DNA of 38,501 bases from sequence record OR941417.1. One strand, written 5' to 3'. Each line of letters begins with the position of its first letter. The first letter of the stretch is position 1. Origin of the DNA: Escherichia phage RCF. This document shows positions 1-38,501 of the stretch, one piece after another. The position numbers were made by a program, and so were the translations under genes. Under the pieces are notes generated by a model, which worked only from the letters and a program-made list of their open reading frames with translations, did no database searches and was not told where the DNA came from.

Positions 1-969
1 GCCAAGGGTAATTGGGGTCTGGAGTCGATGGACTACTGGCAGACACTGGCGGAGCGTATGCGTGATGTTGGTTTCGTCAAGCTGGGCAACGGTCACTTTA
101 GCGCAGCCTATGAACACGCACTGCTACCGGGTAAGGTCATCAAGGTAGGCTTTAAGAAAGAGGACTCAGGCGCTGCCTATGCTGCCTTCTGCCGTATGAA
201 TCAGGGTCGTGAGGGTATCCCTACGGTGTACGACATTCAGCGTCATGCGGGCTGCTACACGGTGGTCTTGGACTATCTGACACCGCTTAACGATTGGTGC
301 TACGGTGAAAGTGATAAGATTCGCCACCACTTCCACGCTGCAAGGGAAATCATTCAGGAGGATTGCTTCGACACCGCCGAAGAGTACCCGATAAGCGAGG
401 GCTTCATTGAGACCTGCAAGGATATCCGCAAGTTCTTCTTAGGCATCGCATCGTTCGACTGTCATAGCGGTAACATGATGAAAGACCAGATGGGACGCCT
501 GATTATCACAGACCCGGTATCATTCAGCGCAGACGACAAGTTAAAGCCGGGTGAGTTCCACTGTGACCCGGATGAACTAATCGCTGAGATTGAGGCGCTG
601 AGGGCGCAGGAAGCGATTGACCGCTGTAAGGCACGCAAGGCACGCCGTGACCCTAACGGAACCTTTCAGGCAGCACGTAAAGCCCGTGCCAAATGGCGCA
701 GAAAGGCCTCTAAGCGTGAGAAGCGCAACGCTAAGGTACTCGCTAAGATGCGCATGGATGCCAATCAGAATCGCAGGGATGAGCCTAGGGCGCGTATGGT
801 GTGGGGCGATAAGCACTGGCGCAACGCTTGGATGCACCACAACAATCTAAACTTTGCAGAACTGGAGCGCCGCGCTGCTGCGGCAATGATGATGCATGAT
901 GAGGTGCGCATTCAGTGGGGCAAACCGTTACACATAGACGCATACCTTGACAAGCGTCTGCAAGGCTGA
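1..969 (+). CDS. 0.7: Gene 0.7 protein kinase / host transcription shut-off protein, C-terminal portion; the ORF begins at 38234 and continues across the window wrap (about 369 aa in total)
   Basis: Translation matches T7 gp0.7 (FKMLGNGHFSAAY, GKVIKVGFKKEDSGAAY, CRM.QGR.GIP.VYD, HAGCYTVVLD, basic C-terminus). Frame is continuous with 38234..38501 through the 127-nt overlap. Confidence 0.9.
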   Translation, partial: AKGNWGLESMDYWQTLAERMRDVGFVKLGNGHFSAAYEHALLPGKVIKVGFKKEDSGAAYAAFCRMNQGREGIPTVYDIQRHAGCYTVVLDYLTPLNDWCYGESDKIRHHFHAAREIIQEDCFDTAEEYPISEGFIETCKDIRKFFLGIASFDCHSGNMMKDQMGRLIITDPVSFSADDKLKPGEFHCDPDELIAEIEALRAQEAIDRCKARKARRDPNGTFQAARKARAKWRRKASKREKRNAKVLAKMRMDANQNRRDEPRARMVWGDKHWRNAWMHHNNLNFAELERRAAAAMMMHDEVRIQWGKPLHIDAYLDKRLQG

Positions 970-1039: not shown

Positions 1040-3694
1040 ATGAACATCATCGAAAACATCGAAAAGAATGACTTCTCCGAAATCGAACTGGCTGCTATCC
1101 CGTTCAACACACTGGCAGACCACTACGGTAGCGCATTGGCTCGTGAACAACTGGCTTTAGAGCATGAGTCTTATGAGCTAGGCGAGCGCCGCTTCCTCAA
1201 GATGCTTGAGCGTCAAGCGAAAGCTGGTGAGATTGCAGACAACGCAGCCGCTAAGCCATTACTCGCTACGCTTCTCCCTAAGTTAACCGCACGTATCGTT
1301 GAGTGGCTCGAAGAGTACGCATCGAAGAAAGGCCGCAAGCCCGTAGCCTATGCACCACTCCAGCTACTCAAGCCGGAGGCGTCCGCGTTTATCACACTCA
1401 AGGTCATCCTTGCGTCACTGACCAGCACGAACATGACAACCATTCAGGCCGCTGCTGGTATGCTGGGGAAGGCCATTGAGGACGAGGCACGTTTCGGGCG
1501 CATCCGTGACCTCGAAGCGAAGCACTTCAAGAAGCACGTTGAGGAACAACTCAACAAGCGCCACGGGCAAGTCTACAAGAAAGCCTTTATGCAGGTGGTT
1601 GAGGCCGATATGATTGGTCGTGGGCTGCTGGGAGGCGAGGCGTGGTCTAGCTGGGACAAGGAAACCACGATGCACGTAGGGATTCGCCTGATTGAAATGC
1701 TGATTGAATCCACGGGTCTGGTGGAACTACAGCGCCACAACGCAGGCAACGCAGGCTCTGACCATGAGGCACTGCAACTGGCCCAAGAGTACGTCGATGT
1801 GTTAGCGAAGCGTGCAGGAGCACTGGCGGGTATCTCTCCGATGTTCCAGCCGTGTGTCGTACCGCCGAAACCTTGGGTATCAATCACAGGTGGCGGCTAT
1901 TGGGCTAACGGTCGCAGACCTTTGGCACTCGTTCGCACTCACTCTAAGAAGGGACTGATGCGCTACGAAGACGTTTACATGCCAGAAGTCTACAAGGCTG
2001 TGAACATCGCACAGAACACCGCATGGAAAATCAACAAGAAAGTTCTTGCCGTTGTCAATGAAATTGTTAACTGGAAGAATTGCCCGGTCGCAGATATTCC
2101 ATCGCTGGAGCGCCAAGAGTTACCGCCCAAGCCGGACGACATTGACACCAACGAGGCAGCACTCAAGGAGTGGAAGAAAGCCGCCGCTGGTATCTACCGC
2201 TTGGACAAGGCACGAGTGTCTCGCCGTATCAGCTTAGAGTTCATGCTGGAGCAGGCCAACAAGTTTGCAAACAAGAAAGCAATCTGGTTCCCTTACAACA
2301 TGGACTGGCGCGGTCGTGTGTACGCTGTGCCGATGTTCAACCCACAAGGCAACGACATGACGAAAGGTCTGCTGACCCTCGCTAAAGGCAAGCCAATCGG
2401 TGAGGAAGGGTTCTACTGGCTGAAAATCCACGGTGCGAACTGTGCGGGTGTCGATAAGGTTCCTTTCCCTGAGCGCATCGCGTTCATTGAGAAGCACGTA
2501 GACGACATTCTGGCTTGCGCTAAAGACCCAATCAACAACACTTGGTGGGCCGAGCAGGATTCACCATTCTGTTTCCTCGCGTTCTGCTTCGAGTATGCAG
2601 GCGTTGCGCACCACGGTCTGAGCTACAATTGCTCTCTGCCGCTGGCGTTCGATGGGTCTTGCTCCGGTATCCAGCACTTCTCCGCGATGCTCCGCGATGA
2701 GGTAGGCGGTCGCGCGGTTAACCTGCTGCCAAGCGAAACCGTGCAGGACATTTACGGAATCGTTGCACAGAAAGTAAACGAGATTCTCAAACAGGATGCA
2801 ATCAACGGCACACCTAACGAGATGATTACCGTGACCGACAAGGACACCGGGGAAATCTCAGAGAAGCTCAAGCTGGGAACCTCAACGCTGGCGCAACAGT
2901 GGCTGGCATATGGTGTAACCCGTAGCGTAACTAAACGTTCGGTCATGACGCTGGCTTACGGTTCCAAGGAGTTCGGCTTTCGTCAACAGGTACTGGACGA
3001 CACCATTCAGCCTGCGATTGACAGCGGTAAGGGCTTGATGTTCACTCAACCTAACCAAGCGGCTGGCTATATGGCTAAGCTGATTTGGGACGCGGTGAGC
3101 GTGACCGTAGTCGCAGCGGTTGAGGCGATGAACTGGCTCAAGTCTGCCGCCAAGCTGCTGGCTGCTGAGGTCAAGGACAAGAAGACCAAGGAGATTCTGC
3201 GCCACCGTTGCGCGGTTCACTGGACTACGCCGGACGGCTTCCCGGTATGGCAGGAATACCGCAAGCCACTCCAGAAGCGTCTCGATATGATTTTCTTGGG
3301 GCAATTCCGTCTGCAACCGACGATTAATACCCTCAAGGATTCAGGCATTGACGCACACAAGCAGGAGTCTGGCATCGCGCCTAACTTTGTTCACTCACAG
3401 GACGGTAGCCACCTCCGCATGACAGTCGTTTATGCTCACGAGAAGTATGGCATTGAGTCCTTTGCGCTCATCCATGACAGCTTTGGGACTATCCCGGCAG
3501 ACGCTGGTAAGCTCTTTAAGGCTGTGCGTGAGACGATGGTTATCACCTATGAGAACAACGATGTGCTGGCAGACTTCTATGACCAGTTTGCAGACCAGCT
3601 ACACGAGACCCAACTGGACAAGATGCCTCCGCTTCCGAAGAAAGGAAACCTGAACCTGCAAGACATTCTCAAGTCTGACTTTGCCTTTGCATAA
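1040..3694 (+). CDS. 1: Single-subunit phage RNA polymerase (T3-type), 884 aa
   Basis: 884-aa ORF collinear with T7 RNAP, preceded by a GAGGT Shine-Dalgarno. Its cognate T3-type promoters recur through the genome. Confidence 0.98.
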   Translation: MNIIENIEKNDFSEIELAAIPFNTLADHYGSALAREQLALEHESYELGERRFLKMLERQAKAGEIADNAAAKPLLATLLPKLTARIVEWLEEYASKKGRKPVAYAPLQLLKPEASAFITLKVILASLTSTNMTTIQAAAGMLGKAIEDEARFGRIRDLEAKHFKKHVEEQLNKRHGQVYKKAFMQVVEADMIGRGLLGGEAWSSWDKETTMHVGIRLIEMLIESTGLVELQRHNAGNAGSDHEALQLAQEYVDVLAKRAGALAGISPMFQPCVVPPKPWVSITGGGYWANGRRPLALVRTHSKKGLMRYEDVYMPEVYKAVNIAQNTAWKINKKVLAVVNEIVNWKNCPVADIPSLERQELPPKPDDIDTNEAALKEWKKAAAGIYRLDKARVSRRISLEFMLEQANKFANKKAIWFPYNMDWRGRVYAVPMFNPQGNDMTKGLLTLAKGKPIGEEGFYWLKIHGANCAGVDKVPFPERIAFIEKHVDDILACAKDPINNTWWAEQDSPFCFLAFCFEYAGVAHHGLSYNCSLPLAFDGSCSGIQHFSAMLRDEVGGRAVNLLPSETVQDIYGIVAQKVNEILKQDAINGTPNEMITVTDKDTGEISEKLKLGTSTLAQQWLAYGVTRSVTKRSVMTLAYGSKEFGFRQQVLDDTIQPAIDSGKGLMFTQPNQAAGYMAKLIWDAVSVTVVAAVEAMNWLKSAAKLLAAEVKDKKTKEILRHRCAVHWTTPDGFPVWQEYRKPLQKRLDMIFLGQFRLQPTINTLKDSGIDAHKQESGIAPNFVHSQDGSHLRMTVVYAHEKYGIESFALIHDSFGTIPADAGKLFKAVRETMVITYENNDVLADFYDQFADQLHETQLDKMPPLPKKGNLNLQDILKSDFAFA

Positions 3695-6102: not shown

Positions 6103-6593
6103 TGCTGCAACATCATTGGAACAAACCAGACTTAGAGGCTCGCTTCCCGGTTAACTCTGTGGTACGATACTCCGGCGGTGGCCTCAAGCGCATCTTAGGG
6201 ATGAGCGGAGTGGTAACTGGTCACTCGCACACAGGTCGCGTTAAGGTTCGCTTCGGTACTCAGCACGCTGAGGTTCTTCCGAACAACCTGATTCCGCTAC
6301 CGAAAGCTGGCGTTAAGACTCCGAACGTTGAAGCACCGAAGACAGAAGTCAAGTCTGACGTGACTCATCCGAACCACTACATGCTGTTCGACAACGTGGA
6401 AGCCATTGAGGTTATCGCCCGGTCAATGACCGTCGAGGCGTTCCGTGGGTACTGCCTTGGGAATATTTTGAAGTACCGCCTGCGTGCTGGTAAGAAATCC
6501 GAACTGGCAACGATGGAGAAAGACCTTAAGAAAGCTGCATTCTATCAGGAACTCTTTGACAAACATAAGGGGCTGTGTTATGACGCTTCGTGA
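6102..6593 (+). CDS. 1.7: Gene 1.7 nucleotide kinase
   Basis: C-terminal half matches T7 gp1.7 (HYMLFD.VEAIEVIARSMTVE.F.GYC.GNILKYRLRAGKK); GGAGG RBS. Confidence 0.8.
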   Translation: MLQHHWNKPDLEARFPVNSVVRYSGGGLKRILGMSGVVTGHSHTGRVKVRFGTQHAEVLPNNLIPLPKAGVKTPNVEAPKTEVKSDVTHPNHYMLFDNVEAIEVIARSMTVEAFRGYCLGNILKYRLRAGKKSELATMEKDLKKAAFYQELFDKHKGLCYDAS

Positions 6594-6717
6594 GTACTGC
6601 GATTGGTGTGCCGCTAAGTGGAACCAAGCTATTGAGGCTGGTGACGAGGCCGCAGCCAACGCCTACCAACAATTGTACGCGCTGTGGGAGAGGCGCTTTA
6701 AGGAGGCCAATAAATGA
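6580..6717 (+). CDS. Gene 1.8-like small protein (45 aa, [16 protein letters not shown]...)
   Basis: ATG 6580 with AAGGGG upstream, overlapping the gene 1.7 end; syntenic with T7 1.8. Track start 6484 is an in-frame upstream ATG inside 1.7. Confidence 0.5.
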
Positions 6718-6950
6718 GCCAGTGTAACAACGGGTGCCAGTACGCGAAGGACGTAGGGATGGAGAACCACTCCTGTGCAAATCGCTGCATGTACTCAGAA
6801 CAGAAATACCTTCTGACGATAGAAGGAAACACCGAGTCCTTTGAGGTTCCGGTATTCGCCCGGTCTCTCGAAGAGGCAACGCTACAGGCTGAACATTATG
6901 AGGACGCTGGGTTCGTAGTGACTCGCATCCGTCCAGAAGTGAAAGCCTAA
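6714..6950 (+). CDS. 2: Gene 2 host RNA polymerase inhibitor
   Basis: C-terminal region matches T7 gp2 (SFEVP.ae.LeEA...AGF.VTR.RP); GGAGG RBS. An internal Met start is possible. Confidence 0.8.
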
Positions 6951-6970
6951 TTACCCTCACTAAAGGGAAC
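6949..6970 (+). promoter_or_regulatory. phi2.5: T3-type phage RNAP promoter, AATTACCCTCACTAAAGGGAAC
   Basis: Consensus match upstream of the SSB gene. Confidence 0.85.
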
Positions 6971-7002
6971 AACCCAATCATTAACCACAAAGGAGAAACA
7001 TT

Positions 7003-7701
7003 ATGGCTGGTTTCAAGAAGAAAATTTACACCTCTGGTCTTGGCACTGCTGAGCCGTATGCTTACCTGAGTAAGCCTGATTACGGCAACGAAGAGCGTGG
7101 CTTCGGCAACCCTCGTGGTGTCTATAAGGTAGACCTGACTCTTTCCAATAAAGACCCGCGCTGTCAGGCGATGGTCGATGAAATCGTGAAGACCCACGAA
7201 GAGGCTTATGCTGCTGCCGTGGAAGAGTTCGAAGCTAACCCGCCGCAGATACAGCGTGGTAAGAAACCACTGAAACCTTACGAGGGCGACATGCCGTTCT
7301 TCGATAACGGTGACGGTACGACTACCTTCAAGTTCAAATGCTATGCATCTTTCCAAGACAAGAAGACCAAAGAGACCAAACACATCAATCTGGTCGTGGT
7401 CGATAGCAAGGGCAAGAAGATTCAGGACGTTCCGATTATCGGTGGCGGCTCTAAGCTGAAAGTGAAATACTCTCTGGTGCCTTACAAGTGGAACACCGCT
7501 GTGGGCGCAAGCGTCAAGCTGCAACTTGAATCCGTGATGCTGGTCGAACTGGCTACCTTCGGTGGTGGCAGTGAAGATGAGTGGGACGATGAAGTCGAAG
7601 ATGGCGGTTACACTGCGAGTGAATCCCGTCAGTCCCGCGATGAGCAGGAGTGGCAGGAAGACGAGCACGAAGAAACCCCGGATGATGACGAGGACTTCTA
7701 A
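7003..7701 (+). CDS. 2.5: Single-stranded DNA-binding protein with acidic C-terminal tail
   Basis: 232 aa, collinear with T7 gp2.5; acidic C-terminus ending DDDEDF. Confidence 0.95.
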   Translation: MAGFKKKIYTSGLGTAEPYAYLSKPDYGNEERGFGNPRGVYKVDLTLSNKDPRCQAMVDEIVKTHEEAYAAAVEEFEANPPQIQRGKKPLKPYEGDMPFFDNGDGTTTFKFKCYASFQDKKTKETKHINLVVVDSKGKKIQDVPIIGGGSKLKVKYSLVPYKWNTAVGASVKLQLESVMLVELATFGGGSEDEWDDEVEDGGYTASESRQSRDEQEWQEDEHEETPDDDEDF

Positions 7702-8162
7702 TGGCTGGCGCATACGCTGCGCGAGGTGTACGCAAGGTCGGGGCTTTCCGCTCCGGCCTAGAAGATAAAGTCTCAAAGCAGCTTGAGAGTAAGGGAATTA
7801 AGTTCGACTATGAACTTTGGCGTATCCCTTACGTCATCCCTGCGAGTGACCACTTATACACTCCAGACTTCCTGCTACCTAACGGTATCTTCATTGAGAC
7901 CAAGGGGCTGTGGGATTCCGATGACCGCAAGAAACACCTTTTGATTCGTGAGCAACACCCTGAACTGGACATTCGCTTGGTCTTCTCAAGCAGCCGCTCA
8001 AAGCTCTACAAGGGTAGTCCAACAAGCTACGGTGAGTGGTGCGAGAAGCATGGCATTCTGTTTGCTGACAAGCTGATACCAGTGGCGTGGCTCAAAGAAC
8101 CCAAGAAGGAGGTTCCGTTCGATAAATTTAAGACTAAGAAAGGAGTAAAGAAAAATGGCTAA
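7701..8162 (+). CDS. 3: Endonuclease I (Holliday junction resolvase)
   Basis: 153 aa matching T7 endo I (YTPDFLLPNGIFIETKG, ELDIRLVFSS); ATG overlaps the 2.5 stop. Confidence 0.93.
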   Translation: MAGAYAARGVRKVGAFRSGLEDKVSKQLESKGIKFDYELWRIPYVIPASDHLYTPDFLLPNGIFIETKGLWDSDDRKKHLLIREQHPELDIRLVFSSSRSKLYKGSPTSYGEWCEKHGILFADKLIPVAWLKEPKKEVPFDKFKTKKGVKKNG

Positions 8163-30510: not shown

Positions 30511-30562
30511 AGGTCACATTCTGGCCTCTTCTCTCTTAATGCTAATTTACAAAGGAGGTCAC

Positions 30563-32170
30563 ATGGCTACAACTATTAAGACCGTGATGACTTACCCGCT
30601 GGATGGCTCCACTACGGACTTTAATATTCCGTTCGAGTATCTGGCGCGTAAGTTCGTCAGAGTGACCCTTATCGGTGTTGACCGAAAGGAACTCATCTTG
30701 AATCAAGACTATCGTTTTGCGACTAAGACCACAATCTCCACAACGAGAGCATTGGGGCCAGCGGACGGTTATAACCTTATCGAGATTCGTCGGTACACCT
30801 CAGCGACTGAACGTCTGGTTGACTTTACGGATGGCTCAATCCTCCGTGCGTATGACCTGAACATCTCGCAGGTGCAGACCCTCCACGTTGCTGAGGAAGC
30901 GCGTGACCTTACCGCTGATACGATTGGCGTTAACAACGATGGCGACTTGGATGCTCGTGGTCGTCGTATCGTGAACGTTGCGGACGCTAAAGACCCCGGT
31001 GACGCAATCACTTTGGGTCAAGTCTCTCGGTGGAATGAGTCGGCACTGAACTCTAAGAATGCTGCTGCTGCATCTCAACAGGCCGCTGCTGCATCCCAAC
31101 AGGCCGCTAAGACCTCAGAGAACAACTCGAAGGTGTCTGAGAACAACGCAAAGACCTCCGAGAGTAACGCGCATCAATGGGCGCAGCGTGCAGAGGACTC
31201 TCCGGTTCAGGGTAGCGAGTTCTCTGCGTATCACTACTCACGGAAGGCCTCAAAGAGTGCCGCCGCCGCAAGTACGTCTGAGGGGAATGCAAAGACCTCT
31301 GAGAACAACGCAAAGACCTCTGAGAACAACGCAAAGACCTCTGAGAGCAACGCCGCTACCAGTGCTGCAACCGCTATCGCTGAGGCCGCCAAGTTGACAA
31401 ACATGAATGATTTTGCGACTACCATCAAGGCTGTTAACACAGCTACCTACTCGGTTTCGTGGAAAGGTGATGGCATGTTTGACGGCTCGGTCACTGCTGG
31501 TAAAGGACTTACAGTGTCTACTGGTGACGTCACCATTAACCAAGGAACGGGCAACTGGGTTTTCCTGAATGGGTACACAGCAGTTGGTGTTAACTACACA
31601 TCCAATGGCATTCGTACATCTAACCGAAACAATCAGCGCGTGGACGACTACACGTGGGAAGCGACAGGGCAGTATTTTGCCAAAGTAGTCCACGTATACC
31701 AAGCAGGCAATCCAAACATTCCAGAGTTCTTCTACGAGTTCCGAAACAATGGTACTGTGCAGTTGGGCCAAGTTAGGGCGATTGGTGGAGATGAATCCAC
31801 CTTCCAGCACAACGTTAATATCCAGTGGGGTGGCCGTGGCGCCCGTTATCAGGAAAATGGCGACATTGTGTCTATACAGGGGGATGCATCCATCTTCCGA
31901 GAATTTGGAGGAACACTTAGTGGTACAATTAACTGGCTTAAGAATGTTAACATTCAGGACGTTTGGTTAGGTGGTCAGGAGTGGTGGGGTTCTTTACGTG
32001 GCAACGGGAATAGCCGTTCTGACTGGGCATTGGGTGGAGGCTCAGTGTGTACTGGCGTGACTCAGGATATGACAGCAGGTGAGCGTAATGCTTGGATTGA
32101 TGGTATATTCCATCGTAAGGTCTGGATTCGTTATGGCTCTGGGCAGCAGCGCATCATTGCTTCTGTTTAA
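30563..32170 (+). CDS. 17: Tail fibre protein (conserved N-terminal tail-attachment domain, repeat-containing shaft, divergent C-terminal receptor-binding region)
   Basis: N-terminal ~150 aa match T7 gp17 (IKTV.TY.LDGS..DFNIPFEYLARKFV.VTLIGVDRK, GVNNDG.LDARGRRIVN); the rest diverges. True start is ATG 30563 after AAAGGAGG; track start 30539 lies in the 5' UTR. Confidence 0.9.
   Translation: MATTIKTVMTYPLDGSTTDFNIPFEYLARKFVRVTLIGVDRKELILNQDYRFATKTTISTTRALGPADGYNLIEIRRYTSATERLVDFTDGSILRAYDLNISQVQTLHVAEEARDLTADTIGVNNDGDLDARGRRIVNVADAKDPGDAITLGQVSRWNESALNSKNAAAASQQAAAASQQAAKTSENNSKVSENNAKTSESNAHQWAQRAEDSPVQGSEFSAYHYSRKASKSAAAASTSEGNAKTSENNAKTSENNAKTSESNAATSAATAIAEAAKLTNMNDFATTIKAVNTATYSVSWKGDGMFDGSVTAGKGLTVSTGDVTINQGTGNWVFLNGYTAVGVNYTSNGIRTSNRNNQRVDDYTWEATGQYFAKVVHVYQAGNPNIPEFFYEFRNNGTVQLGQVRAIGGDESTFQHNVNIQWGGRGARYQENGDIVSIQGDASIFREFGGTLSGTINWLKNVNIQDVWLGGQEWWGSLRGNGNSRSDWALGGGSVCTGVTQDMTAGERNAWIDGIFHRKVWIRYGSGQQRIIASV
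31061..31351 (+). repeat. In-frame 21-bp (heptad) tandem repeats within tail fibre gene 17: block 1 at 31061..31169 (5 units), block 2 at 31289..31351 (3 units, 62/63 nt identical)
   Basis: Units GCAAAGACCTCTGAGAACAAC x2 then GCAAAGACCTCTGAGAGCAAC (AKTSENN/AKTSESN); upstream units encode AAASQQA x2 and AKTSENN/SKVSENN/AKTSESN. Confidence 0.9.
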
Positions 32171-33170: not shown

Positions 33171-33623
33171 ATGCTAAAACTTTTACGCAGCGCACTCCCT
33201 TGGGTACTCGCCGGGACACTCTTTATGGGTGGCTGGCACTTAGGATCAACCCATGAGAGAGCAAACTGGAAGGAGGTAATCCAAAATGAATACATTGCGA
33301 AAACAAAAGCAACCGCAGCAACTCAGGCAGAGGTCAGTCGGGTATCCCGTGAGTACCAAGAAGAGATTGCAGCCATTGAAGGCAGCACTGATAGGATGCT
33401 TAATGACCTGCGTAGTAATAATAAGCGGCTGTCAGTCCGCATCAAAACCCTTACCGGACTACCAGAAGATAACGGTAGATGCGAGTTTAATGGTCGAGCC
33501 GAACTACACGAGTCAGATGCTAAGCGTATTATCGGAATAACCCAAGCTGCTGATGCTCACGTAAGAGCGCTCCAGCGTACTATTAAGGAGATGCAGAATG
33601 AGCGACACCCAAGCAAACCGTAA
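33171..33623 (+). CDS. 18.5: Rz-like i-spanin (inner-membrane spanin subunit)
   Basis: N-terminal TM segment then coiled region; matches T7 gp18.5 (LIPWVLAG.LF..GWHLGS...KW, EGSTDR...DLRS.NKRL.VR.KT). Start at ATG 33171 after GGGAGG. Confidence 0.85.
33286..33540 (+). CDS. 18.7: Rz1-like o-spanin (outer-membrane lipoprotein), fully embedded in 18.5 in another frame
   Basis: 84 aa with lipoprotein signal and lipobox (VVIISGC); resembles T7 gp18.7 (..ALIG....CV.TISGC..., SLMVEPN.T..ML.V.S). Confidence 0.8.
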   Translation: MNTLRKQKQPQQLRQRSVGYPVSTKKRLQPLKAALIGCLMTCVVIISGCQSASKPLPDYQKITVDASLMVEPNYTSQMLSVLSE

Positions 33624-35361
33624 TGCGCTAATCATCGCGCAGCTTAAGGGTGACTTCGTGGCCTTCCTGTTCGTATTGTGGAAGGCTTTGGCTCTCCCGC
33701 CGCCAACTAAGTGTCAGATTGATATGGCCCGGTGTCTGGCTAACGGAGACAACAAGAAGTTTATCCTACAGGCTTTCCGTGGTATCGGGAAGTCATTCAT
33801 CACCTGTGCGTTCGTTGTGTGGACGTTATGGCGTGACCCACAGTTGAAGATACTAATTGTCTCTGCATCCAAAGAACGTGCGGACGCTAACTCCATCTTC
33901 ATCAAGAACATCATTGACCTGCTGCCCTTCTTGGCTGAGCTAAAACCTCGCCCCGGTCAGCGTGACTCTGTGATTAGTTTCGATGTTGGCCCTGCCAAGC
34001 CTGACCACTCTCCGTCTGTGAAGTCGGTGGGTATCACTGGTCAGTTGACTGGTAGTCGTGCTGATATCATCATAGCGGATGACGTTGAGATTCCGTCTAA
34101 CTCCGCAACTCAAGGTGCCCGTGAGAAGCTGTGGACTCTGGTGCAGGAATTTGCTGCGCTTCTGAAACCGCTGCCGACTTCTCGCGTTATCTACCTTGGC
34201 ACGCCTCAAACCGAAATGACCTTGTACAAGGAACTCGAAGATAACCGTGGGTACACCACAATCATCTGGCCTGCGCTCTATCCGCGTAGCCGTGAGGAAG
34301 ACTTGTACTATGGCGACCGTCTGGCCCCTATGCTCCGCGAAGAGTTCAACGATGGGTTCGAGATGCTCCAAGGTCAACCAACTGACCCCGTGCGCTTCGA
34401 TATGGAAGACCTGCGTGAGCGTGAGTTGGAATACGGTAAGGCTGGCTTCACTTTGCAGTTCATGCTCAACCCGAACCTGAGTGATGCCGAGAAGTACCCC
34501 TTACGCCTCCGTGACGCTATCGTGTGCGGTCTGGACTTCGAGAAAGCCCCAATGCATTACCAGTGGCTTCCGAACCGTCAGAATCGCAATGAAGAGCTTC
34601 CTAACGTGGGCCTTAAGGGTGATGATATTCATAGCTATCATTCGTGCAGCCAGAACACTGGACAGTACCAGCAACGCATCCTCGTGATTGACCCTAGTGG
34701 TCGCGGTAAGGATGAGACAGGTTACGCAGTGTTGTTCACCCTGAATGGCTACATCTATCTGATGGAAGCTGGCGGGTTCCGCGATGGTTATTCCGATAAG
34801 ACCCTTGAGTCCCTCTCTAAGAAAGCGAAGCAGTGGAAGGTTCAGACAGTGGTCTTCGAGAGTAACTTCGGGGATGGTATGTTTGGTAAGGTATTCAGCC
34901 CTGTGCTCCTGAAACACCATGCAGCGCAACTTGAAGAGATTCGTGCTCGTGGTATGAAGGAACTACGCATTTGTGATACGCTGGAGCCTGTACTCTCTAC
35001 GCACCGCCTTGTGATTCGTGACGAGGTGATTCGTGAGGACTACCAGACTGCCCGTGACGCTGATGGCAAGCACGACGTTCGCTATTCGCTGTTCTACCAG
35101 TTGACCCGTATGGCTCGTGAGAAGGGCGCTGTGGCCCACGATGACCGACTTGATGCGTTAGCATTGGGTGTGGAGTTCTTACGCTCTACGATGGAACTGG
35201 ACGCCGTGAAGGTGGAGGCTGAGGTGCTTGAGGCGTTCTTAGAGGAACACATGGAGCACCCAATCCATTCGGCTGGTCATGTAGTCACCTCTATGGTTGA
35301 CGGTATGGAACTCTATTGGGAGGATGACGATGTGAATGGCAATAGGTTCATTGACTGGTAG
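33598..35361 (+). CDS. 19: Terminase large subunit (DNA maturation protein B)
   Basis: 587 aa, highly similar to T7 gp19 along its length ([81 protein letters not shown]). Confidence 0.97.
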
Positions 35362-35441
35362 TTATGCATATTGAGCGCATAAGGATTCAATTAGACCACG
35401 GATGGTCACTTTAAGAAACTCCTTAAGAATCAATGAGTTTG

Positions 35442-35466
35442 AATTAACCCTCACTAAAGGGAGAGA
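35442..35466 (+). promoter_or_regulatory. phiOR: T3-type phage RNAP promoter (phiOR-like), GAATTAACCCTCACTAAAGGGAGAG
   Basis: Perfect consensus match near the right end, upstream of gene 19.5. Confidence 0.85.
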
Positions 35467-35604
35467 GGGGACTTAAAGCTACTATATAGGTTAGTCATTC
35501 AGGTTATGCAATGACCCTTTATGCACTTTAAGTCTCCTCTATGATTGGTGATATTATCATTGTATAATCACCCTACCTTAGAGCAACTGAAAGGAGGTGG
35601 CTCA

Positions 35605-35754
35605 ATGTTACGCTTGCTGATTGCCCTGCTGCGTCATAGAGTCACTTGGCGATTTCTTCTGGTACTTGCTGCTACCCTTGGGTACGCAGGTCTTACTGAC
35701 CACCTCGGTCAACTGGAAGTGGCCTTTTGCTCTATACTCTCTTGTGGGGATTAA
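35605..35754 (+). CDS. 19.5: Gene 19.5 protein (49 aa)
   Basis: MLRLLIALLRHRVTWRFLLVLAATLGYAGLTDHLGQLEVAFCSILSCGD resembles T7 gp19.5; AAGGAGG RBS. Track start 35545 is upstream in-frame. Confidence 0.8.
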   Translation: MLRLLIALLRHRVTWRFLLVLAATLGYAGLTDHLGQLEVAFCSILSCGD

Positions 35755-35822
35755 ATTATTGTTGATGAACGACAAGCGGCTCTGAGGGATTCGTAGGTAT
35801 AGTTTCACTACACCAACTCATC

Positions 35823-36410
35823 CCTGTAGAGTCAACCCTAAAGGTTATACCTAAAGATGCCCTGTAGTTCGTAATGGTCTTACAGGGTCTTCTGGTGTCT
35901 CCTAGCTATCCCTTCGGGATGCGCCTATGGTCTCACCTATGGTGTGGCCTTACCTAAAGTGGGTTCCTAAAGAGACCCTTTAAGAATTTACCACAAAAAT
36001 CTGAATGGGTATCTCACAGTTCAAGAACCCAAAGTACCCCCCATAGCCCCTCTTAAAGCCACCTAAAGCCAGCCCTACCCCTAGGGTTTAACCTTCGGTT
36101 AACCTTGAGTGTCTCCTCAAGTGGCCTATAGGATAGCCTAAAGTGATTCCTAAAGTCAATACCTAAAGTGGTGGATGGCTTAAGGAGGCCTTAAAGAGTG
36201 TCCTAGTGTACCAGTTCGATAGTACATCTCTATGTGTCCCTATCTGTTAGCCTCATAAAGTAAACCCTAAAGCCTCCACCTAAAGCCTCCACCTAAAGCC
36301 ACTACCTAAAGACCAGACCTAAAGCCTCCACCTAAAGAGTGGAGCTATCTTAAAGACAACCAGACTGATAGACCAACTGTTAGCCTGTAGTGACGCCCTG
36401 TAGTTATCTG
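35823..36410 (+). repeat. Genome-end region: arrays of the heptamer CCTAAAG (about 14 exact copies plus CTTAAAG variants), CCCTGTAG motifs, and the probable terminal repeat (about 36012..36241)
   Basis: Exact CCTAAAG copies at 35837, 35850, 35953, 35966, 36062, 36137, 36149, 36162, 36266, 36279, 36292, 36305, 36318 and 36331. TCTCACAG at 36012 matches the conserved T7-group left terminus, and nearby blocks (AACCTTCGGTT.ACCTTGAG, GTGTCCCTATCTGTTA) match the T7 terminal repeat. Confidence 0.6.
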
Positions 36411-36420
36411 TAGTCAATTC

Positions 36421-36442
36421 AATTACCCTCACTAAAGGGAAT
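36421..36442 (+). promoter_or_regulatory. phiOL: T3-type phage RNAP promoter (phiOL-like), AATTACCCTCACTAAAGGGAAT
   Basis: Matches the T3 promoter consensus at the left end. Confidence 0.8.
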
Positions 36443-36495
36443 AAGGGATACTTAAAGAGGGAATAAGGGATTTAATAAAAGATTTAAATTAATGG

Positions 36496-36525
36496 TTGAC
36501 TTTAAGTAACCCTTAAGGCTATTAT
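36496..36525 (+). promoter_or_regulatory. A1: Host sigma70 early promoter A1-like (TTGACT, ~18 nt spacer, TATTAT)
   Basis: -35/-10 hexamers read from the sequence; location at the genome left end matches T7 A1. Confidence 0.55.
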
Positions 36526-36624
36526 TCATCTCGTCAACGGGACAACGGCCTTAAAGCCACTCCCTGAGATACCGGAGTCAACCGGATAAGTAGACAGCCT
36601 GATAAGTCATACGAAAAACAGGCA

Positions 36625-36654
36625 TTGACAACATGAAGTAACATGCAGTAAGAT
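36625..36654 (+). promoter_or_regulatory. A2: Host sigma70 early promoter A2 (TTGACA ACATGAAGTAACATGCAG TAAGAT)
   Basis: Near-identical to the T7 A2 promoter sequence as I recall it. Confidence 0.8.
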
Positions 36655-36734
36655 GTACCACATAACGTCAACCACAAATCGGTGTCTTCTAGGTGACTTA
36701 AGCGCACCACGGCACATAAAGCGAAACAAAATGG

Positions 36735-36763
36735 TTGACAACATGAAGTAAGCACGGTACGAT
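36735..36763 (+). promoter_or_regulatory. A3: Host sigma70 early promoter A3 (TTGACA ACATGAAGTAAGCACGG TACGAT)
   Basis: Near-identical to the T7 A3 promoter; followed by GTACCACAT. Confidence 0.8.
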
Positions 36764-36887
36764 GTACCACATTGAAACGACAGTGAGGCGGGACACTGAA
36801 AGCCGCTAGGGTCTAACGAAACCAGACCGACACGCTCTTTAACAATCTGGATAATAGCTCTTGAGTGTACCGATGTATAAGCGAATA

Positions 36888-36925
36888 ACTCAAGGTCGCA
36901 CTAAAAGCGTGGCCTTTATGATATT
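36888..36925 (+). promoter_or_regulatory. RNase III-type processing hairpin upstream of gene 0.3 (ACTCAAGGTCGCACTAAAAGCGTGGCCTTTATGATATTC)
   Basis: Same motif family; position corresponds to T7 R0.3. Confidence 0.7.
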
Positions 36926-36958
36926 CACTTAACACGAACTAACATGAGGTAACACCAA

Positions 36959-37417
36959 ATGATTTTCACTAAAGAGCCTGCTAACGTCTTCTATGTACTG
37001 GTGTCAGCTTTCCGTTCAAACCTTGACGATGAGGTGAACATGAGCCGCCACCGCCACATGGTAAGTACTTTACGTGCCGCACCGGGTCTTTATGGCTCCG
37101 TTGAGTCAACCGATTTGACCGGGTGCTATCGTGAGGCAATCGCAAGCGCACCAACTGAGGAAAAAACGGTTCGTGTACGCTGCAAGGACAAGGCGCAGGC
37201 GCTCAATGTTGCACGCTTAGCTTGCAATGAGTGGGAGCAAGATTGCGTACTGGTATACAAATCACAGACTCACACGGCTGGTCTGGTGTACGCTAAAGGT
37301 ATCGACGGGTATAAGGCTGAACGCCTGCCGGGTAGCTTCCAAGAGGTTCCTAAAGGCGCACCACTGAAAGGGTGCTTTACGATTGACGAGTTCGGTCGCC
37401 GCTGGCAAGTACAGTAA
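36959..37417 (+). CDS. 0.3: S-adenosyl-L-methionine hydrolase/lyase (anti-restriction protein)
   Basis: 152 aa starting MIFTKEPANVFYVLVSAFRSNL..., which I recognise as the T3 SAMase; first gene after host promoters A1-A3 and the R0.3 hairpin. This is T3-type, not the T7 Ocr protein. Confidence 0.92.
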   Translation: MIFTKEPANVFYVLVSAFRSNLDDEVNMSRHRHMVSTLRAAPGLYGSVESTDLTGCYREAIASAPTEEKTVRVRCKDKAQALNVARLACNEWEQDCVLVYKSQTHTAGLVYAKGIDGYKAERLPGSFQEVPKGAPLKGCFTIDEFGRRWQVQ

Positions 37418-37423
37418 GTGATA

Positions 37424-37460
37424 GACTCAAGGTCGCACTGTATGTGTGGCCTTTATGATT
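37424..37460 (+). promoter_or_regulatory. RNase III-type processing hairpin after gene 0.3 (GACTCAAGGTCGCACTGTATGTGTGGCCTTTATGATTATC)
   Basis: Same motif family; near-duplicate of the site at 36888. Confidence 0.7.
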
Positions 37461-37489
37461 ATCACTTAGCACGTTATAGGACTAACACC

Positions 37490-37690
37490 ATGAGTAAACT
37501 ACTGGCAACATCTAAAATAGAAGGCCAATGCACTGTAACACTGCGCGAGTATTACCACGGGTCAATGGGAAGCACCTACGTTGTGCGATACGGTAAACAG
37601 GTCACACATTGGGTAAATCCGATTTTAGCACAAGAGGATTATCAAGCCTGTGTGATACACCAAGCAACATGTGCGGGCTGGAATGATTGA
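37490..37690 (+). CDS. Early small protein (66 aa), function unknown
   Basis: ORF following an RNase III-type hairpin; true start ATG 37490 (MSKLLATSKIEGQC...). Position corresponds to the T7/T3 0.4-0.6 block. Confidence 0.6.
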   Translation: MSKLLATSKIEGQCTVTLREYYHGSMGSTYVVRYGKQVTHWVNPILAQEDYQACVIHQATCAGWND

Positions 37691-38233: not shown

Positions 38234-38501
38234 ATGACTTTCACCGAAGCACAAGCCGCACTCGAAGCTATCCGCAACCTACCGATTGAGCGCCTGAACG
38301 AACGCCAGCCCATGCTGGTGGCTCTTGCGGCTGCTATCGTGAACGCTGAGACTCAAGACGGGCAACTGACGCAGGCCAAGGGTAATTGGGGTCTGGAGTC
38401 GATGGACTACTGGCAGACACTGGCGGAGCGTATGCGTGATGTTGGTTTCGTCAAGCTGGGCAACGGTCACTTTAGCGCAGCCTATGAACACGCACTGCTA
38501 C
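38234..38501 (+). CDS. 0.7: Gene 0.7 protein kinase, N-terminal portion (3' end truncated by window end; continues in frame at window start)
   Basis: ATG 38234; MTFTEAQAALEAIRNLPIERLNERQPMLVALAAAIVNAETQDGQLTQAKGNWGLESMDYWQTLAERM... runs to the window end, and the last 127 nt are identical to nt 1..127. Confidence 0.85.
   Translation, partial: MTFTEAQAALEAIRNLPIERLNERQPMLVALAAAIVNAETQDGQLTQAKGNWGLESMDYWQTLAERMRDVGFVKLGNGHFSAAYEHALL
38375..38501 (+). repeat. Window wrap-around: these 127 nt are identical to nt 1..127 (circular permutation or assembly overlap, not a biological repeat)
   Basis: Direct comparison of the first and last 127 nt of the window; the overlap falls inside gene 0.7. Confidence 0.95.

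Follow-up and report, generated by a model that had tools for sequence, protein, structure and literature searches.

The closest described systems are the concatemer junctions of phages T7 and T3. According to PMC10438801, each junction of a concatemer holds one copy of the terminal repeat and the second copy is made during packaging. Specificity for homologous DNA is given by gp19 through sequences within 5% of the termini, and an RNA polymerase that pauses at a class II signal interacts with gp18/gp19 to start maturation (PMC3276506). This signal, ATCTGTT, is a strictly sequence-specific pause and termination signal of T7-type RNA polymerases and lies at the T7 concatemer junction. A T7 origin together with the concatemer junction, when placed on a plasmid, leads to its packaging into particles. 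For T3, the ends were determined from read-start pile-ups, which gave the forward terminus TCTCATAGTTCAAGAACCCA, the reverse terminus AGGGACACATAGAGATGTAC and repeats of 230 bp (PMC3896407). It is documented that short-read assembly of T7-like phages can merge the direct terminal repeats and place them mid-contig (PMC10438801).

We computed the terminal repeat of four linear records as the longest exact prefix that is also a suffix of the record. The repeat measures 230 bp in phiSG-JL2 (EU547803) and in T3 (KC960671), 232 bp in Yersinia phage phiYeO3-12 (AJ251805) and 160 bp in T7 (NC_001604).

Here we analyse record OR941417.1 of Escherichia phage RCF, a stretch of 38,501 nt (hereafter the window). 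An earlier note on this DNA had proposed that the genome ends meet inside the window, between gene 19.5 and the phiOL promoter. Comparison with the reference phages makes it highly probable that this interval is a concatemer junction. With similarly high confidence, homology places the left end of the virion DNA at 36012 and its right end at 36241.

Genome and form of the assembly

The window is a complete T3-like genome. Several Teetrevirus records, Klebsiella phage GlastosBack and Yersinia phage phiYe-F10 among them, share 96-97% identity with it over 24.9 kb, and the identity to GlastosBack is about 97% over most of the genome. Genes follow the T7-group order on the + strand throughout, and 11-12 T3-type promoters (AATTAACCCTCACTAAAGGGAGA) were found. 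High identity to T3-like genomes, collinearity with them and T3-type promoters together assign the window to the genus Teetrevirus.

The two ends of the window repeat each other.

1..127, no strand: assembly overlap, first copy, identical to 38375-38501
38375..38501, no strand: assembly overlap, second copy, identical to 1-127

The overlap is exactly 127 nt long at 100% identity, leaving a unique genome length of 38,374 bp. The open reading frame of gene 0.7 (369 aa) spans the contig join, running from 38234 to 38501 and continuing at 128..969. Because the ends overlap and gene 0.7 is restored across the join, the whole contig closes as a circle that was opened inside gene 0.7, at an arbitrary point. 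The overlap together with the split gene points to short reads assembled into a circle, and in our own reading its length of exactly 127 bases suggests a k-mer overlap that the assembler did not trim. An assembler would have closed the genome into a circle because the same 230-bp sequence would be common to both ends of the virion DNA.

Many public relatives have likewise been deposited permuted, so that the junction falls within the record, where it carries no annotation. Klebsiella phages GlastosBack (OR896841), KpnP_VR4605 (OM103160) and vB_KpnP_Emp27 (MN013074), about 94-97% identical to the window over the junction, are permuted in the same way and hold a single repeat copy. These permuted Teetrevirus records differ from the window by small indels and by other array copy numbers. 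In GlastosBack, short minus-strand 'hypothetical protein' genes are annotated at 903-992 and neighbouring positions, across the junction and the early promoter region; these calls probably arose from annotating a permuted record.

Borders of the predicted terminal repeat

The earlier note had placed a probable terminal repeat of 230 bp at about 36012..36241.

36012..36241, + strand: terminal repeat, 230 bp, present as a single copy in the assembly and assigned by homology to reference phage ends
36011/36012, left border: AAGAATTTACCACAAAAATCTGAATGGGTA / TCTCACAGTTCA (the slash marks the cut), with the 30 bases before the cut the same in phiSG-JL2 and T3
36241/36242, right border: TCTCTATGTGTCCCT / ATCTGTTAGCC, the same in phiSG-JL2 and T3, with GTGTCCCT / ATCTGTTA common to T7

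At single-base precision, this stretch corresponds to the terminal repeats computed for the reference phages, which supports the proposed repeat, its ends being drawn by homology. The left border reads ...AATCTGAATGGGTA followed by TCTCACAG, the right border ...TGTGTCCCT followed by ATCTGTTAG, and both match phiSG-JL2. The border motifs are also common to phiYeO3-12 and T7. In general form, the left terminus reads TCTCAYAG and in the concatemer is preceded by ...AAAAATCTGA(A/G)TG..TA, while the right terminus reads ...GTGTCCCT and then ATCTGTT, preceded by A, C or T; the window has both. The octamer TCTCACAG, which the earlier note had read as the conserved left terminus of the T7 group, does stand at 36012 in the context seen in T3 and phiSG-JL2. 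This octamer is not significant alone, and its significance comes from the 20-30 bp context.

The measured T3 termini provide a direct comparison. The T3 termini mapped by read starts fall on 36012 and 36241. More specifically, the forward terminus TCTCATAGTTCAAGAACCCA, a 20-mer, matches window positions 36012-36031 with one mismatch, and the complement of the reverse terminus, GTACATCTCTATGTGTCCCT, matches 36222-36241 exactly; each is the sole match in the window. The identity of the borders and the position of the T3 termini together indicate that the terminal repeat is 36012..36241.

Further relatives agree with these positions. In many independent linear records, the first base is the homologue of 36012. 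These are the records of phiSG-JL2, phiYeO3-12, T3, T7M, Citrobacter SH1, Klebsiella Kpn-11mx, phiYe-F10 and Serratia 2050H2, and in several of them (phiSG-JL2, phiYeO3-12, Citrobacter SH1, Klebsiella Kpn-11mx, phiYe-F10 and T7M) a terminal repeat of 227-232 bp is annotated. In an alignment of 10 Teetrevirus junctions, both borders are invariant.

A repeat search found no second copy of 36012..36241 in the window. The mature DNA should begin with TCTCACAG at 36012 and, after one full turn, end with GTGTCCCT at 36241. The predicted virion DNA is thus 38,604 bp long with an exact direct terminal repeat of 230 bp.

Comparison with described phages

The overall arrangement of gene 19, phiOR, gene 19.5, junction, phiOL, A1-A3 and gene 0.3 is the same in the window, phiSG-JL2 and T3, as are the 230-bp repeat and the ATCTGTT site. 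Within the repeat, the window is 96.1% identical to phiSG-JL2 and 91.8% identical to T3. The window differs from both in its circular permutation, with the repeat present once, in an extra 23-bp segment at 35901-35923 and in a longer left array, with two more 13-bp units than phiSG-JL2 and four more than T3. The 23-bp indel is common to six public relatives, and the extra array units are also present in Klebsiella phage KpnP_VR4605.

Phage phiYeO3-12 has the same architecture and border motifs, and its repeat is 94.4% identical to that of the window. It differs in its 232-bp repeat, its left terminus TCTCATAG, two extra heptamer units at the right end and a shorter left array.

The more distant T7 shares with the window the left terminus TCTCACAG, the right border GTGTCCCT followed by ATCTGTT, CCTAAAG arrays with a period of 12-13 bp on both sides, the AACCTTCGGTT hairpin in the repeat and the placement of phiOR and phiOL. 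In contrast to the window, T7 has promoter sequences of the T7 type rather than the T3 type, and its repeat measures 160 bp because ~70 bp in the middle of the T3-type repeat have no counterpart there. The earlier note had rightly pointed to blocks matching the T7 terminal repeat: 130 of the 160 T7 positions align identically to the window, mostly in the ~100 bases at the start and the ~20 at the end.

Elements of the junction

On its left, the junction is bounded by gene 19.5, upstream of which lies phiOR; on its right follow phiOL, A1-A3 and gene 0.3. In order, it comprises right-end unique sequence (35755-36011), one copy of the repeat (36012-36241) and left-end unique sequence (36242-36419).

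35442..35464, + strand: phage promoter phiOR (AATTAACCCTCACTAAAGGGAGA), at the homologous position of the promoter OR annotated in phiSG-JL2 and phiYeO3-12
35605..35754, + strand: gene 19.5, 49 codons and a stop, with no further gene between it and the right end; phiSG-JL2, phiYeO3-12, T3 and T7 all have it annotated as gp19.5
35755..36011, + strand: right-end unique non-coding segment, 257 bp, with four CCTAAAG (two pairs, 13 bp apart) and two CCCTGTAG
35860..35887, + strand: inverted repeat CCCTGTA / TACAGGG, 7-bp stem and 14-nt loop, DNA fold -5.6 kcal/mol, z = -2.96
35901..35923, + strand: 23-bp indel polymorphism CCTAGCTATCCCTTCGGGATGCG with a small ATCCC/GGGAT hairpin, from the alignment
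36088..36121, + strand: two adjacent small hairpins in the repeat, TTAACC-ttc-GGTTAA and CTTGAG-tgtctc-CTCAAG, -6.1 kcal/mol, z = -2.0
about 36130..36159, - strand: leftward sigma-70-like promoter in the repeat (TTGACT, 18-nt spacer, TATCCT), equivalent to the putative A0 of phiSG-JL2 and phiYeO3-12
36420..36442, + strand: phage promoter phiOL (CAATTACCCTCACTAAAGGGAAT), annotated as promoter OL in phiSG-JL2 and phiYeO3-12
36496-36525, + strand: host promoter A1, from a promoter scan and the homologous phiSG-JL2 annotation
36625-36654, + strand: host promoter A2, from the same two sources
36735-36763, + strand: host promoter A3, from the same two sources

Promoter phiOR reads rightward through gene 19.5 and over the junction; the gene 19.5 product has no Pfam match. 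The right-end segment 35755..36011, where by homology we take the right-end packaging and cleavage signals to lie, is nearly invariant in 10 Teetrevirus sequences save for one indel and one array expansion, the latter in phiYeO3-12. Both arms of the CCCTGTA/TACAGGG inverted repeat are invariant in all Teetrevirus sequences compared. The 23-bp segment CCTAGCTATCCCTTCGGGATGCG is present in the window and six relatives and absent from T3, phiSG-JL2 and phiYeO3-12, and the fold of its hairpin is not significant (-4.2 kcal/mol, z = -1.6). It lies ~90 bp left of the right-end cut with CCTA on both flanks, so that its placement is ambiguous by up to 4 bases.

Within the repeat, the hairpin TTAACC-ttc-GGTTAA (36088-36102) does not vary among T3-like phages. 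Its T7 equivalent is TCAACC-ttc-GGTTGA, in which a compensatory change from T-A to C-G keeps the stem. This compensatory change hints at a selected structure. At the right repeat border, DNA folding of 36195-36250 gave no structure beyond chance (z = -0.46), so that no hairpin marks the cut on this side. An Rfam scan of 35000-37500 at E <= 1 returned no known RNA family, only a chance match to a microRNA model with 20 bits against a gathering score of 80 bits.

To the right of the repeat, promoters A1-A3 (36496..36763) mark the start of early transcription from the left end. Upstream of CCCTCACTAAAGGGA, the AT-rich part of phiOL reads CAATTA where the T3 consensus has AATTAA, with AAT versus AGA after +1. 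This phiOL variant is common to KpnP_VR4605, Emp27 and others, and phiSG-JL2 and GlastosBack have ATTAAC.

The interval between gene 19.5 and phiOL had been described as free of ORFs, and this is essentially right. At a minimum of 30 aa, 35755-36419 has the tails of two ORFs overlapping gene 19.5 and one 37-aa minus-strand ORF (36319..36432), the last being the only ORF that lies wholly inside 35755-36432. We regard this ORF as spurious and rejected it as a gene: it starts with GTG, it lies inside the heptamer array and phiOL, and the phage genes are all on the + strand.

Terminase, polymerase and proposed maturation

The window encodes both terminase subunits of the T7 type and a single-subunit RNA polymerase, and carries a candidate pause signal directly at the right repeat border.

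1040-3694, + strand: single-subunit RNA polymerase, 884 aa, PF00940 and PF14700
32815..33081, + strand: gene 18, small terminase subunit, 88 aa, PF11123 DNA_Packaging_2, E = 1.2e-16
33598..35361, + strand: gene 19, T7-type large terminase subunit, 587 aa, PF22530 Terminase-T7_RNaseH-like, E = 1.6e-39, and PF03237
36242..36248, + strand: ATCTGTT, class II pause/termination signal ('CJ' site), directly right of the repeat and preceded by T

The gene 19 homologue in phiSG-JL2 is annotated as gp19, DNA packaging protein B. A motif search for HATCTGTT found a single + strand copy in the genome, at 36241-36248. ATCTGTT is invariant in T7, T3 and eight other relatives, and the phiSG-JL2 annotation has the CJ terminator at bases 231-237. 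In T7, unprocessed concatemers are the phenotype of polymerase mutants that no longer respond to class II signals.

From the homology to T7 and T3, we infer the following course of events, each step of which follows what is described for those phages. Replication would join genomes head to tail through the repeat, giving one copy per junction. Phage RNA polymerase starting at phiOR would cross gene 19.5 and the repeat and pause at ATCTGTT (36242-36248). Terminase (gp18 and gp19) with the prohead would then be recruited to the junction and would cut sequence-specifically between 36011 and 36012 and between 36241 and 36242. DNA synthesis would duplicate the repeat, such that both neighbouring genomes retain a copy.

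Other readings of the ends have to be weighed against this concatemer junction. The ends could lie in the region at other bases than 36012 and 36241, either through a cut a few bases away or through a repeat that is not 230 bp long, the length given here resting on homologous borders. Repeat lengths do differ among the 10 aligned relatives (227, 228, 229, 230, 232 and 243 bp, with 232 bp in phiYeO3-12). However, this spread results from small indels inside the repeat and not from shifted borders, the border contexts being invariant in 10 of 10 genomes. Moreover, the 30 bases outside each cut are the same as in T3 and phiSG-JL2. We therefore consider displaced ends very improbable. A more radical reading is that the genome is truly circular or packaged by headful and so lacks fixed ends, the stretch being simply a repeat-rich intergenic spacer. 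A contig that closes by a 127-bp overlap is also expected of a circular or permuted genome, but circular closure is the expected artefact of short direct terminal repeats. Furthermore, homology to measured physical phage ends extends over the entire stretch, and the terminase is of the T7 type. We give the reading without fixed ends almost no credence. In particular, we rejected headful (pac-type) packaging by a P22-, SPP1- or T4-type terminase since the terminase matches a T7-specific nuclease domain and the region is homologous to fixed, measured ends. The concatemer junction with ends at 36012 and 36241 thus remains our reading of this stretch.

Heptamer arrays and CTGTAG motifs

The junction is rich in the heptamer CCTAAAG. 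In the whole window, 20 copies were found where 3.9 +/- 2.2 are expected, and none of 100 shuffles reached 20. The earlier note had counted about 14 exact copies plus variants in the junction; the count is exactly 14, all on the + strand between 35837 and 36337, compared to ~0.07 expected per 664 bp. With the relaxed pattern [CT][ACT]TAAAG, the region holds 18 copies, which are 79 times denser here than elsewhere in the genome. Four exact copies lie left of the repeat, four inside and six to its right, so that arrays stand on both sides, and within clusters the spacing is mostly 12-13 bp.

36253..36355, + strand: left-end heptamer array, six exact CCTAAAG and two variants with a 13-bp period, from motif and tandem-repeat search
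36385..36413, + strand: cluster of three CTGTAG just upstream of phiOL, mostly conserved in the alignment and degenerate in ESh7

The number of exact copies in the left array ranges from 2 to 6 among 10 genomes: T3 has 2, phiYeO3-12 has 3, most have 4-5, and the window and KpnP_VR4605 have 6. In the array left of the repeat, phiYeO3-12 has two extra units. The arrays flanking the repeat are a conserved architectural feature with variable copy number.

The other motif that had been pointed out in this stretch, CCCTGTAG, is indeed present, in three copies at 35822, 35860 and 36396. These are the only ones in the window and all lie within 0.6 kb; the count alone is not significant, as 10 of 100 shuffles reach 3. 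For the shorter CTGTAG, 5 of the 10 + strand copies genome-wide fall in the junction region.

The role of the CCTAAAG arrays is the least certain part of our explanation and its weakest link. A full-text literature search for CCTAAAG returned only unrelated primer sequences, and a search for pacB returned PacBio papers or nothing. The OL and OR names in T7 denote origin-associated promoters. The arrays may not be packaging signals at all; they could instead be binding sites linked to the secondary replication origins at phiOL and phiOR, serve DNA entry or be largely dispensable sequence kept by replication slippage. This alternative, which concerns the arrays only, we regard as less likely than not. 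It agrees with the 13-bp tandem period, which favours slippage, and with an enlargement of the right-hand array found solely in phiYeO3-12 in the 10-genome alignment. It also agrees with a left-array copy number of 2-6 among phages at least 92% identical in the repeat, and such free variation argues against a strict requirement. On the other hand, the heptamer, its strand and its positions on both sides of and inside the repeat are kept from T7 to the T3-like phages despite ~20% divergence, which argues for selection on the motif itself. A further idea, which we hold to be improbable, is that the variation in the left array (2-6 units among near-identical phages) and the 23-bp hairpin indel beside the right-end cleavage region are more than neutral slippage and adjust, according to host, how efficiently DNA is packaged or how well terminase and DNA fit each other. 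If this were true, the long-unexplained CCTAAAG arrays would become testable by comparing natural variants.

Consequences for the record

The descriptive statements of the earlier note all proved correct, and its interpretation is supported. The feature itself is already known, a standard T3-type concatemer junction and the well-known meeting place of the virion DNA ends; the identification is correct but ordinary. It brings no new biology and its value is mainly practical. The advice in the earlier note to re-linearise the record from 36012 is sound, given that the assembly was closed into a circle and its opening point falls within gene 0.7. Specifically, the record can be corrected by dropping the 127-bp overlap, reopening the circle at 36012 and appending a second copy of 36012-36241, which gives 38,604 bp. 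After re-linearisation, gene 0.7 is whole and spurious genes across the junction, of the sort annotated in some public relatives, should not be called. Genome comparison and classification depend on correctly placed ends, as does the engineering of T3/T7-type phages and of phagemids that need the junction for packaging.

Two further open reading frames were observed elsewhere in the window. A 416-aa ORF with a TTG start (6526-7776, minus strand) is antisense to + strand genes. As every known gene of this genome is encoded on the + strand, the frame is probably open by chance. The ORF at 30539-32170 (543 aa), presumably the tail-fibre gene 17, contains two blocks of 21-bp tandem repeats at 31085-31374, which encode seven-residue units such as AKTSENN, SKVSENN and AKTSESN.
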